From a virus (lineage: Duplodnaviria > Heunggongvirae > Uroviricota > Caudoviricetes): DNA of 36,201 bases. The position numbers are program-made. Every line of letters begins with the position of its first letter. Within the stretch, counting starts at the first letter, position 1. Below, piece by piece: positions 29,501-32,500 of the stretch. The stretch lies in IMG/VR virus record IMGVR_UViG_2711768014_000012, one strand, 5' to 3'.

Positions 29501-32500
29501 TTACATAACTGAGTTTATGTAAGTCTTCATCATTCAGACGAGTGAGGGCTGGGACAGTAGCCATGATGGCAGCCTCCTTGATCGGTGAAATACTTCCACC
29601 ACCGGAAACGCCAATTTCGCTGGTGGTGAACTGAACGGGGTTGGCGTAACCGGTGATCAAGGAAACCGGCGCATCTTTCGATGCCCCCGCCCAGCCCACC
29701 ATAACTTTGATGTGAGCAAATGCGGACGATAAAAAAGACGCTGGCGCGTCATATATCGCCTTGATCAATTCCAGGACGCCAATCCCGGCACCCGCTTTAT
29801 AAGGTGCCTGAACAGTGTAACGTCCCGGAATGGCAGAATCAATGTGCTGGTGGTCCTTCACACTCAACAAAATCACGCCTGAATTTCCACAAAGGACTAA
29901 AGCACTCATGCGGGTAGTCTTTGCGAAGATAGATAACGCGCTGTGTTTCTGGCTCCCAACGAATAACATGAACATAAAGTCCTCTTCCGTCACGAAACCA
30001 GCGGTTAAGTTCCTGCACAACTCGCCCCCCACAGTCAGGTAAAGTTCTCTGTGGTTACTTACAGCCAGGTGATTTGGTAATCTGCATTCATGCCGTAACA
30101 ACAGGTGTTCAGCGACGCTGACCACCAGCTGTTGCGACAAACGGTTATTTGCCGTTAAACTGTTCATGCGTTAGTTTCTCCACAGACACAAAACGCCACG
30201 ACGCCCGGAGCTGCACACTCGCGGGCGTCACTCTTTTCTGGAGCGCAAAAGATTTTGTAGACCAGTGCTGCATGCTCCTGGAGCTTCGAAATTGACAGAT
30301 ACAACTCATCATTAATTGCTGTCTGCTCGTGTGGCTCCACTACCCCATCTTCGATTGCCGAACGAATCTGCTTTGAGTAACTCCCGATCTGTTCGATGAC
30401 TTCCAGCAGGCGCTGGTTTATATCGGCGTTCTCTACTTCCTCAATTTCAGGAAGCGATACAAACACCCCACCAGCAGACTGTGCGACAGCATCCGCAATG
30501 TAGTGAGTGCCAGCCGCGCGCTGTAAAATCATTGCCCATCCCAGCGGGAAAATCTGATCGCCATCTGCACGAAGGCGGTTGAATAAAGCGTTCTCTGTTA
30601 CATCCAGCCACTCAGCAGCTTCAGCGTAACCCCCCGGCAACGCCGCGATAGTTTTTCTGACAGCTTTCACGTACCACTCAGGCTGTTTTTCTACTTTCCA
30701 GTGATGCTTACCCACGGTTAGCCTCATCGTTCTGTGGTTAAAAATTGAAGGTGTTCTGTTAATCTTTCGGATAGATATCCGGTCTTAAGTCAGATTTCGT
30801 AATTGCACCTGACGTGCATTGCTCAAGTTTTTTAGCCAGCACAAAACTGGCTTTTTTATAACCATTGAAAACCAGCCGTAAGTAGCCTGGTGTTGAGCCA
30901 ACTTTTCCGGCCAACTCACCCTGCTGTTCTTTGGTTAAAGAGTCCCAATACGCTTTCATACAATATGTACCTCCGGTATACATATTACATGATTGAGATG
31001 AACCTTCAAGATACTTGTACCTTATCGGTACAAAGGTTTTAATTTCTTTATGAAAACAGTCCATGACATCCGGCGGTCTAACGCCAGAAAACTGAGAGAT
31101 GGTGTTGGCGGGAATTCTTCCTTTGCCACCATGATTGATCGCGAGCCAACCCAGACCAGCAGGTTTATGGGAGATGGTGCAACTAAAAATATCGGTGACA
31201 GCATGGCACGGCACATCGAAAAATGTTTCGACCTGCCTGTCGGATGGCTTGATCAAGAACACCAGACAACGAACATCACAAAAAAACCTGACGTTTCAAT
31301 CACTAACAAACAAATAACGTTAGTCCCTGTCATATCATGGGTACAGGCCGGAGCATGGAAAGAAGTTGGCTATTCTGAGGTTGATTTGAGCACAGCAGAA
31401 ACTTATCCCTGCCCTGTACCCTGTGGCGAAATGACTTATATCTTGCGGGTGATTGGTGATTCAATGATTGATGAGTACCGCCCGGGAGACATGATTTTTG
31501 TTGATCCTGAAGTCCCTGCCTGCCACGGTGACGACGTTATTGCATTGATGCACGATACAGGCGAAACCACCTTCAAGCGGTTGATAGAAGATGGAACACA
31601 GCGTTATCTCAAAGCATTAAACCCAAACTGGCCTGAGCCTTACATTAAGATTAACGGTAATTGCTCTATAATTGGTACAGTGATTTTCTCAGGAAAACCA
31701 AGAAGATACATAATAAAGGCCTAATCAATATTTATAACCTGCTTCGGCAGGTTTTTTTATACTTGACAATGTACCTTTGGGATACATAATGTATCTAAAA
31801 GAAACACAGCACAGGCAAGATTAAACAAAATTTGGTTGTAACACGGCGTATGGCACATGCGTCGTTAGCGGTCTGGGGACGTTAAAGGGGACAATCCACT
31901 CCTTGCTCGGGCAAACAAACCAGGTAGCCGGAATGTGCAAGTCAATGATGATGCTGATAAGACGCCTAACCAGCGTGGCGATTCGGTTTGACGCCTGGGA
32001 AGAGACCAGGGTGCAACGATGAGGACATTTATGGAACCGCGACAAAGTGTGGTGCCGTAACTGGCTAAGTGCTCTCAGCGTTGTGGTGAATGCGCAGGCT
32101 GATGCGCGAAAGACATTGCAGCTAATGCGGAAAAGAGCTGTTCGGCGGGGCAATTAAACGCCCGTGAGAGTCTGAAATAACCGCAAGCCGGAGATCAGCA
32201 CCGGTCACCACAACAGCCACTGCTTTGGCGGTACCAGTTTGTACACTTGCTTCCGGCTGGTACCGCTCTTTTTACAAAACAGAGAAGAGCATCACCGGAC
32301 GACGGGCTCATAACCAAATCCATCCGGGCGGCTGCCACCGCAGGTGTTCTTCTCTGTTTTGTGGAGAAACCAACCGACCTTGCAGGGTCGATATGATTAG
32401 GAGCAGCAAAATGGCTAGCGAACGCAGTACTGATGTGCAGGCATTTATTGGGGAGCTGGACGGCGGCGTATTTGAAACCAAAATCGGCGCAGTTCTCAGT

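Follow-up and report, generated by a model that had tools for sequence, protein, structure and literature searches.

In phage lambda, the early-left transcript runs from the promoter pL through nutL and an RNase III hairpin to gene N, with a hairpin of ~100 nucleotides (nt) lying directly before the first early-left ribosome-binding site. Leader-derived immunity RNAs matured by RNase P are made by phages P1 and P7 (C4 RNA) and by P4 (CI RNA). The metY-rimP-nusA-infB operon is laid out as promoter, tRNA gene, terminator(s), processing hairpins and open reading frames (ORFs), and the thrS operator places a mimic of a tRNA anticodon arm in the 5′ untranslated region, where it abuts the ribosome-binding site and has ThrRS as its partner. 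Lambdoid prophages without N are widespread in E. coli, Shigella, Salmonella, Klebsiella and other Enterobacterales; SfV, ST64B, mEp460, cdtI, the Stx2c-converting phages and LLS are examples, and a 2025 paper on LLS only speculates on put RNAs for early-left expression (PMC12315714). We analyzed such a prophage, the IMG/VR record IMGVR_UViG_2711768014_000012 (36,201 nt; this whole stretch of DNA is referred to below as the window), which is a lambdoid prophage of E. coli. Between its cI-like repressor gene and yfdP, the region 31796-32410 is non-coding and carries an intrinsic terminator, which we call T, followed by a covarying RNA structure, which we call Y. Conserved RNA elements, a candidate gate terminator and a covarying structure absent from Rfam, can now be placed where early-left control must act in N-less phages. 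The T and Y module, together with a look-alike of tRNA-fMet inside Y, appears to be undescribed and widespread; the small RNA (sRNA) that ends at T, sRNA-17, has already been published.

Along the plus strand, the order of parts is a pL-like promoter, a 5′ leader ending in a hairpin X, a swappable cassette, T, Y, and a small hairpin H just ahead of the ribosome-binding site. The locus is like the lambda N leader in its long untranslated post-pL leader and in the ~100-nt hairpin directly ahead of the ribosome-binding site. It differs in having no N, boxB or free boxA, in the strong intrinsic terminator and sRNA that precede the hairpin, and in that cleavage by RNase III is here only presumed. 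The putL and putR RNAs of HK022 (PMC9378689) are likewise two-hairpin structured early-leader RNAs of N-less lambdoid phages, but they have no sequence similarity to Y; put follows the promoter and precedes its terminators, whereas Y comes after T, and the interior of Y is not conserved outside one clade. In common with the C4 and CI RNAs, the leader gives rise to a small stable RNA whose 5′ end coincides with the start of a long terminal helix; however, this leader has no Rfam C4 match, and its processing and any targets of the RNA are putative. The metY operon has the same order of parts, with a tRNA-like slot in our case, and initiator-tRNA sequence occurs in both, but there is no homology beyond a 17-nt anticodon-arm match. 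As in the thrS operator, a leader hairpin copies the anticodon arm of a specific tRNA, but the hairpin in Y is ~90 nt upstream and is a putative mimic.

The initial annotation of the region had found no credible ORF and no plausible N-like gene, and both observations hold. Neither the 110-amino-acid (aa) ORF on the minus strand (31821-32153), which it had judged to look non-coding, nor the small plus-strand ORFs match a Pfam family. Translations of diverged homologues are interrupted by stops and frame changes, and in an Ayreon-like clade a wholesale swap of the cassette interior truncates the 110-aa ORF. Homologues of Y differ by insertions and deletions of 23-25 nt, which are not multiples of three. 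The only PHROG matches, phrog_3651 and phrog_33599, are to ORFs lying over Y (32198-32338, minus, and 32247-32393, plus), and these families were probably built from spurious ORF calls on conserved non-coding DNA. No gene for an N-like protein was found downstream of pL among the leader ORFs with Pfam and PHROG, no leader ORF is conserved, and the only antitermination factor found elsewhere in the prophage is a Q-like late antiterminator at 23845-24636.

Comparative evidence that T is an intrinsic terminator is strong. T (32227-32273, plus strand) consists of a GC-rich hairpin of 13 base pairs (bp), GGCGGUACCAGUU...GGCUGGUACCGCU, at 32227-32267 in the fold of 32226-32415, followed by UCUUUUU, with a predicted stability of -20.7 kcal/mol. 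When T is counted as a hairpin with a free energy (dG) of -12 or lower followed by 4-8 U, its architecture is found at the matching position in 54 of 71 loci, with ~20 unrelated stem sequences, so that the architecture is kept while the stem changes. A mapped RNA end coincides with it. The sRNA-17 of E. coli K1 RS218 is a 193-nt RNA from an mEp460-like prophage, defined by Northern blotting and by 5′ and 3′ rapid amplification of cDNA ends (RACE) (PMC7719688), and its sequence in the supplementary alignment of that paper, GTTGTGGTGAATGCG...GGTACCGCTCTTTT, is that of window 32080-32272, which comprises the cassette, a linker and T. The RACE 3′ end, ...GGUACCGCUCUUUU, is position 32272, inside the U-run of T. 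In the primer table of the same paper, the Northern probe and 5′-RACE primers are antisense and the 3′-RACE primers sense; sRNA-17 is therefore a plus-strand RNA, co-oriented with yfdP and ending within the U-run. The suggestion in the initial annotation that the region may encode a prophage sRNA is thus right.

Although sRNA-17 has the same sequence and strand and comes from a similar prophage, our reading of it differs from the published one, in which it is an independent, ArcA-regulated, trans-acting RNA with its own promoter (PMC7719688). We regard it as the 3′ portion of the pL leader, formed by termination and probably by processing. The RNA is present in uninduced lysogens, and by comparison of Table S2 of that paper with the window, its quantitative reverse-transcription PCR amplicon is 31830-32224 and its "promoter" fragment 31830-32078 (PMC7719688), so that transcripts over the upstream leader and the cassette exist in lysogens. 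Promoter prediction places no sigma-70 promoter immediately 5′ of 32080 and none inside Y. Given the longer transcript and the lack of a promoter at 32080, the 193-nt species is most simply a processed 3′ fragment of the leader transcript, and its precursor would most simply originate at a leaky pL or by read-through from the repressor gene. The acceptor-like helix that closes the cassette begins with G32080, the RACE 5′ end. RNase P would be expected to cut a helix of this sort at precisely that position, as in the C4 RNA of P1/P7 and the CI RNA of P4, and we infer an RNase P-type processing site there. Deletion of sRNA-17 was reported to raise yfdP 95-fold and also to raise yfdR (PMC7719688). 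The deletion removed only 32105-32222, and a chloramphenicol-resistance (CmR) cassette and T remain in the strain, so the 95-fold rise is no proof of trans regulation or of the function of T. The CmR cassette is presumably oriented towards yfdP, given the layout of pKD3; the rise of yfdP and yfdR is ambiguous and is probably due to read-through from that cassette, in cis rather than in trans. The phenotypes and ArcA regulation attributed to sRNA-17 may reflect cis effects on the early-left operon rather than a 193-nt trans-acting sRNA, and a published "virulence sRNA" is re-read here as part of the pL leader. The published work has no description of T as such, or of X, Y or H (PMC7719688), whereas here the RNA occupies an exchangeable slot ending at a terminator conserved in Enterobacterales.

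A longer form of T, of ~65 nt, occurs in many relatives but not in the window, and has a conserved insert (...UCUUCAACC...GGAGG...GAAGAUAAUGUUCUG...). It is found at loci L094, L111, L120-L132, L145, L146, L087 (Kp4866-6) and L086 (ST64B), and carries a Shine-Dalgarno sequence and an AUG-UUC-UGA mini-ORF on the 3′ strand of the terminator stem. The sequence suggests that termination at this variant may be under translation-coupled control.

Y (32269-32367, plus strand) is a three-way junction of ~100 nt, and strong covariation supports both its structure and its strand. The lower stem of 25 bp pairs 32269-32293 with 32343-32367 and takes in the U-tract of T. It includes the long-range pairing between 32273-32289 and 32347-32363 that the initial annotation had drawn, which is in fact complete (15 Watson-Crick and two G-U pairs, 17/17) and of which homologues retain 15.6/17 on average. 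The fold of 32226-32415 is stable relative to shuffled sequences (z = -5.6). Standard pairs fill 97.6% of the pair cells in a set of 25 diverse sequences, compared with 41-55% when the partners are slid, and 10 pairs are compensatory; none of 500 shuffles reaches this. When 40 sequences are aligned with a covariance model, 21 of 41 pairs are compensatory, against 3-8 in slid controls and again with 0/500 shuffles, although this alignment was fitted to the model and is hence biased towards the structure. The covariance model built from the 25 sequences scores 129-160 bits on the plus strand and ~33-40 bits on the minus strand, and invariant U-G pairs in Y fit the plus strand only. Of the two upper hairpins, B (32328-32341, GCGG-CUGCCA-CCGC) has compensatory changes in all four of its pairs and varies among homologues in sequence and in length, from 14 to ~40 nt. 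Hairpin A (core 32295-32327) contains CGACGGGCUCAUAACC at 32300-32315, with the loop CUCAUAA at 32307-32313 and CAU at 32309-32311. It is the only helix in Y that never covaries, being simply invariant, which suggests sequence-specific recognition by a particular partner.

Y may well represent a new RNA family. Searches of 31600-32600 and of 20 homologous loci with Rfam 15, at gathering and at permissive thresholds, returned no leader family (C4, isrK and tRNA were found elsewhere only), and a literature search found no paper containing the T or Y sequences. The window holds no second copy of Y, for example in the pR operon as putR or nutR would have it; a weak match at 26416-26476 comes from an H-type hairpin. 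Complementarity of the Y loop to isrK, C4 or the start codon, limited to 4-7 nt and absent in the window, was treated as chance. Hairpin H (32375-32390, CGACC-UUGCAG-GGUCG) lies 8 nt before the Shine-Dalgarno sequence and 20 nt before the yfdP ATG. Seven hairpins of this kind, in which a GC-rich 5-bp stem carries a loop with GCAG at its end (mostly GUGCAG or UUGCAG), are present in the window against 0.45 expected from shuffles: at 32375-32390 and 34638-34653 on the plus strand, at 26437-26452 on the minus strand, and also at 4301, 33694, 27186 and 17382. Three of them stand 17-20 nt ahead of start codons, and similar hairpins precede RdgC-like and YfdR-like genes in related loci; the GCAG-loop hairpin may be a recurrent motif ahead of ribosome-binding sites.

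The pair of T and Y is found in over 100 viral contigs and in over 50 species of Enterobacterales. Of 67 species-representative loci, 27, representing 13 genera, have the invariant motif GACGGGCTCAT 106-136 nt upstream of the yfdP ATG, and when viral contigs were scanned with the hairpin-A motif, at least 120 loci were recovered. Among the matches listed, 108 loci have enough downstream sequence to identify the next gene; it is yfdP in 78 and another gene in 30, including genes for an RdgC-like protein, a YfdR-like HD nucleotidase and a small Xis-like protein. Since the first gene differs, T and Y form a generic early-left leader module that is independent of the downstream gene, and the idea that Y is an operator for YfdP was rejected on the same count. 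In Yersinia, Serratia, Rahnella, Providencia, Xenorhabdus and Morganella, weaker covariance-model matches and folding reveal the same layout: T, then a very long near-perfect helix based on UUUUUACAC.../...GUGUGGAG(A/U)AA, a small hairpin and a Shine-Dalgarno sequence. The helix interior is unrelated in these six genera, while the long helix is universal. E. coli K-12 CPS-53 has neither T nor Y.

Upstream of T, the non-coding 5′ leader (31797-32079) has patches conserved across genera at 31843-31879 and 31963-32029. They contain conserved hairpins W1 (31843-31865, ACGGCGUAUG-GCA-CAUGCGUCGU) and W2 (31994-32010, CCUGG-GAAGAGA-CCAGG, which is CCCGG/CCGGG in Kp4866-6). Hairpin X (32014-32083) is a long helix with the outer pairs CAAC...GUUG. 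In 22 distinct homologues an outer helix of 12-20 bp is kept with clearly covarying sequences, such as GAGAGCA/UGCUCUC, AAGCGCACUCC/GGAGUGCGCUU and UGAAACGGUUU/AAGCCGUUUCA. The last four bases of X are the first four of the cassette domain (32080-32214), whose acceptor-stem-like closing helix pairs GUUGUGGUGA (32080-32089) with UCACCACAAC (32205-32214). The cassette is swappable: in the Ayreon-like clade an unrelated interior lies between ~99% identical flanks. Many cassettes end in a T-arm-like hairpin abutting the 3′ strand of the closing helix, and in Phytobacter (L107, L115) and Yersinia (L142) the slot holds a tRNA-like gene with the acceptor stem GUUGUGG/CCGCAAC. These tRNA-like genes lie between X and T at L107 1922-2000, L115 1186-1264 and L142 1869-1996; ARAGORN calls tRNA-Ile (AAU) in L107 and L115, and the Rfam tRNA model scores 52.8 bits in L107 and 40.3 bits in L142, which has a large insert. 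Neither ARAGORN nor the Rfam tRNA model finds a cloverleaf in the window cassette. Long-range pairs proposed by RNAalifold over the whole leader were discarded, as they rest on almost invariant columns.

The ~18 nt at 31803-31820 are a remnant, the first part, of a ~70-nt module (CAUCAACAGCGAACAGGCAGGACGCCCACGAAGUAGCCGCCGGUGGC.CAUGAAUGACCGGAUGAUUCGCU) that relatives carry directly after pL. It is seen at L099 1355-1425 and L002 (SfV) 2605-2674, and also in ST64B, SfII, SfIV, phiNP, Kp4866-6, YeP1-3, ZF40, AH07, SPN3UB, mEp237 and T5-like Providencia phages. At L099 it follows an HK022-type OL/pL, at the exact position of putL in HK022. Neither a BLAST comparison with put nor Rfam gives a match for the module, which is a candidate for the early antiterminator RNA so far missing from these relatives.

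We present a hypothetical model in which these parts form a gated, non-coding, modular leader, and with modest confidence we lean towards it. Transcription would start at pL (~31797) and proceed through ~280 nt of leader with conserved hairpins, X among them, and then through the cassette with its acceptor-like helix. T would stop most polymerases and form the 3′ end of sRNA-17, the stable 3′ part of the leader transcript, whose 5′ end would be cut at G32080 by an RNase P-type activity. In the lysogen, T may act as a gate or insulator that keeps basal pL activity and co-oriented read-through from the repressor gene out of the early-left genes. Transcripts that pass T would fold Y, in which the 25-bp helix pairs the U-tract of T with GGAGAA just before H and the ribosome-binding site. 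The near-uninterrupted duplex of 25 bp in the window, and of 20-35 bp across clades, is of the length (at least 20 bp) that RNase III takes as substrate. Y is most likely a double-strand-specific, RNase III-type processing and stability element that would separate the leader and sRNA from the operon mRNA, in parallel with the RNase III hairpin of the lambda N leader and the sites after metY, with hairpin A perhaps adding recognition by a specific partner. Simple leakiness of T under a strong pL is our default assumption for early-left expression.

Several points weigh against this model. An efficient T leaves early-left expression after induction unexplained: no antitermination factor or RNA has been identified, and searches of the leaders and the window turned up neither a conserved antiterminator helix nor an N gene nor a homologue of put that would provide a route past T. 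Cleavage by RNase III and by RNase P is inferred at this locus, and the published 95-fold rise of yfdP is unusable as evidence, T having been kept and a resistance cassette being present. The invariant hairpin A exceeds the needs of a simple RNase III site. The window cassette is itself not recognizable as a tRNA, and thermodynamic z scores are unremarkable for the 5′ leader (-0.46) and for sRNA-17 (-1.55), so that support for the 5′ leader comes from conservation and not from stability.

It is conceivable, if unlikely, that Y is instead a put-like processive antiterminator that works without protein, binding RNA polymerase and carrying it past downstream terminators and Rho sites in place of N. 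These phages lack N, and put has been speculated upon for LLS (PMC12315714); Y is present as a single copy in the left operon, heads that operon whatever the first gene, and has two hairpins with invariant unpaired bases. Its position argues otherwise. Y lies ~470 nt from the start site, neither directly after the promoter nor upstream of T, and comes after a terminator that is beyond its suppression. HK022 putL and putR show no BLAST similarity to any of the leaders compared, the interior of Y is unrelated in Yersinia, Serratia and Providencia, where the long stem is retained all the same, and no strong internal terminators are seen in the window operon before 34956.

A second rival reading, which we consider doubtful, concerns hairpin A. 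Its family consensus CGACGGGCUCAUAACCC shares 16 bases of 17 with E. coli metY (CGUCGGGCUCAUAACCC), among them those of three G-C pairs and the loop bases CUCAU. This consensus folds as a 7-nt loop, CUCAUAA, under three G-C pairs, and a loop of this type closed by three G-C pairs is a hallmark of tRNA-fMet. Hairpin A might therefore be a functional mimic of the initiator-tRNA anticodon arm that engages the 30S P site and initiation factor IF3, or MetRS, loading or holding ribosomes on read-through RNA, or it might be a decoy or sensor for tRNA-fMet nucleases. That it is invariant while every other helix of Y covaries, and that tRNA-like genes occupy the neighboring slot in related leaders, fits such a role. 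The motif also recurs outside T and Y, at L162 (IMGVR_UViG_2687453105_000005, ~116-136) and at L198; the L162 hairpin lies ~100 nt after a terminator-like hairpin and ~120 nt before a gene for a small holin-like membrane protein, and the site is possibly a late-operon leader. Unlike in real tRNAs, however, loop positions 6-7, the equivalents of tRNA positions 37-38, vary in some members (AA, UA, UC). In the window copy, G32304-A32316 replaces the third G-C pair of the family, the hairpin is ~90 nt from the start codon, it is absent from clades outside Enterobacteriaceae and Erwiniaceae, and no precedent was found in the literature. A broader proposal, in which T and Y with the stem-closed cassettes are an unrecognized class of early-operon leader RNA in N-less lambdoid phages whose anticodon-arm copy engages the 30S P site/IF3, MetRS or tRNA-fMet-specific nucleases, is one to which we give little credence. 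If it were true, read-through of the gate terminator would be coupled to ribosome loading or to counter-defense, in the role played by N and nut in lambda and by put in HK022. The anticodon-arm match is a sharp and cheap experimental handle.

Quite improbable, in our view, is an RNA immunity of the P4 type, in which sRNA-17 would pair with repeats of the CACAAC/GUUGUG type in the nascent leader and enforce termination at T. There are indeed five occurrences of complementary CACAAC/GUUGUG motifs, which lie at the bases of X, the cassette and Y. Uninduced lysogens contain the sRNA, and removing the interior of the cassette with T retained raises yfdP and yfdR (PMC7719688). Elsewhere this phage has an antisense immunity RNA of the C4 type. 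The motifs are, however, already engaged in covarying intramolecular helices, phages with identical flanks swap the interior of the cassette freely, and the resistance cassette of the deletion strain probably transcribes towards yfdP. The C4 RNA concerned (Rfam, 29619-29706, minus strand, 82 bits) lies in tandem with isrK (29731-29807, minus strand, 64 bits) in the pR-side operon. Both fall within or upstream of a 278-aa ORF (29331-30167) whose C-terminal part belongs to the Ash family, and we doubt the calling of so long an ORF across the RNAs; the tandem looks like a P1/Gifsy-type RNA immunity or antirepressor module.

The model of the initial annotation fares worse still, and we hold it to be very unlikely. 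It proposed that a boxA-like CGCTCTTTTTA (32264-32274), by analogy with nutL, is followed by a segment that toggles between a local and the long-range helix and so serves as an attenuator or antiterminator switch for entry into yfdP. Both pairings can be drawn in the window (6/6 and 17/17), and a terminator is adjacent. The sequence is present, but it is the end of the 3′ strand of T plus the U-run and not a single-stranded boxA; the motif belongs to the terminator, and the analogy with nutL falls with it. A single-stranded boxA (CGCUCUUUA-like) with a boxB, as in a lambda-type nut site, is lacking, and GUGCUCUC at 32070 is the paired 3′ strand of X. The local helix, GCTCTT (32265-32270) with AAGAGC (32285-32290), is intact in the window as described but complete in only 5 of 31 distinct homologues, where it averages 4.6/6 and consists mostly of U-A pairs of the U-tract, compared with the mean of 15.6/17 for the long helix; mutually exclusive pairing is not a conserved feature, and no conserved helix competes with the terminator stem. 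Polymerase transcribes T ahead of both arms; with T upstream of the long hairpin, the downstream arm of that hairpin comes too late to affect termination. The modules upstream are exchanged without regard to T, with mosaic breakpoints at its two edges, 32225/6 and 32268/9, which rules out a conserved upstream antiterminator partner.

The reading that the region encodes one or more small proteins (the 110-aa minus-strand ORF, a 39-aa plus-strand ORF or the PHROG-matching ORFs over Y) was rejected on the Pfam and PHROG results and the broken translations of diverged homologues, and is extremely improbable despite the hypothetical proteins annotated there by depositors, as the two PHROG matches are explained by ORF calls on conserved DNA and the 23-25-nt insertions and deletions in Y, with its compensatory base-pair changes, point to selection on RNA pairing.

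The surroundings are those of a lambdoid early-left operon. The region is 100% identical to many E. coli chromosomes, 99% identical to phage mEp460 from 31824 onward, and ~90% identical to Ayreon, cdtI, 2H10 and Stx2c-converting phages. The gene for the cI-like, LexA-family repressor (31050-31724, plus strand) is followed by a terminator hairpin with a 7-bp stem and TTTTTTT (31736-31753, plus strand) and, directly 3′ of it, by the pL-like sigma-70 promoter that the initial annotation had placed ahead of the region (TTGACA-16-CATAAT, 31763-31790, plus strand; 11/12 consensus match). An operator-like half-palindrome, TGTACCTTTGGGATACA (31770-31786), can be read inside the promoter spacer and resembles TTGTACCTTATCGGTACAA at 31015-31033 in the cI/cro intergenic region; these features predict a strong, operator-overlapped, repressor-controlled pL-like promoter with a transcript start at ~31797. 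The first early-left gene here is yfdP (32411-32773, plus strand; ATG at 32411), preceded by the Shine-Dalgarno sequence AGGAG (32399-32403); a PDB sequence search with YfdP gave no match. ST64B, phiNP, LLS, SfV and others have a matching repressor-yfdP gap of 600-1000 nt without gene annotation, orf33 of SfV excepted. After yfdQ (DUF2303; 32839-33663, plus strand) comes an AT-rich pair of ORFs (277 and 93 aa; 33801-34952) that looks like a moron or defense-type insertion in the early-left operon. It is closed by a strong bidirectional terminator at 34956-34981 (GAAAACCCGCCTTTAGGCGGGTTTTT), past which the genes lie on the opposite strand.

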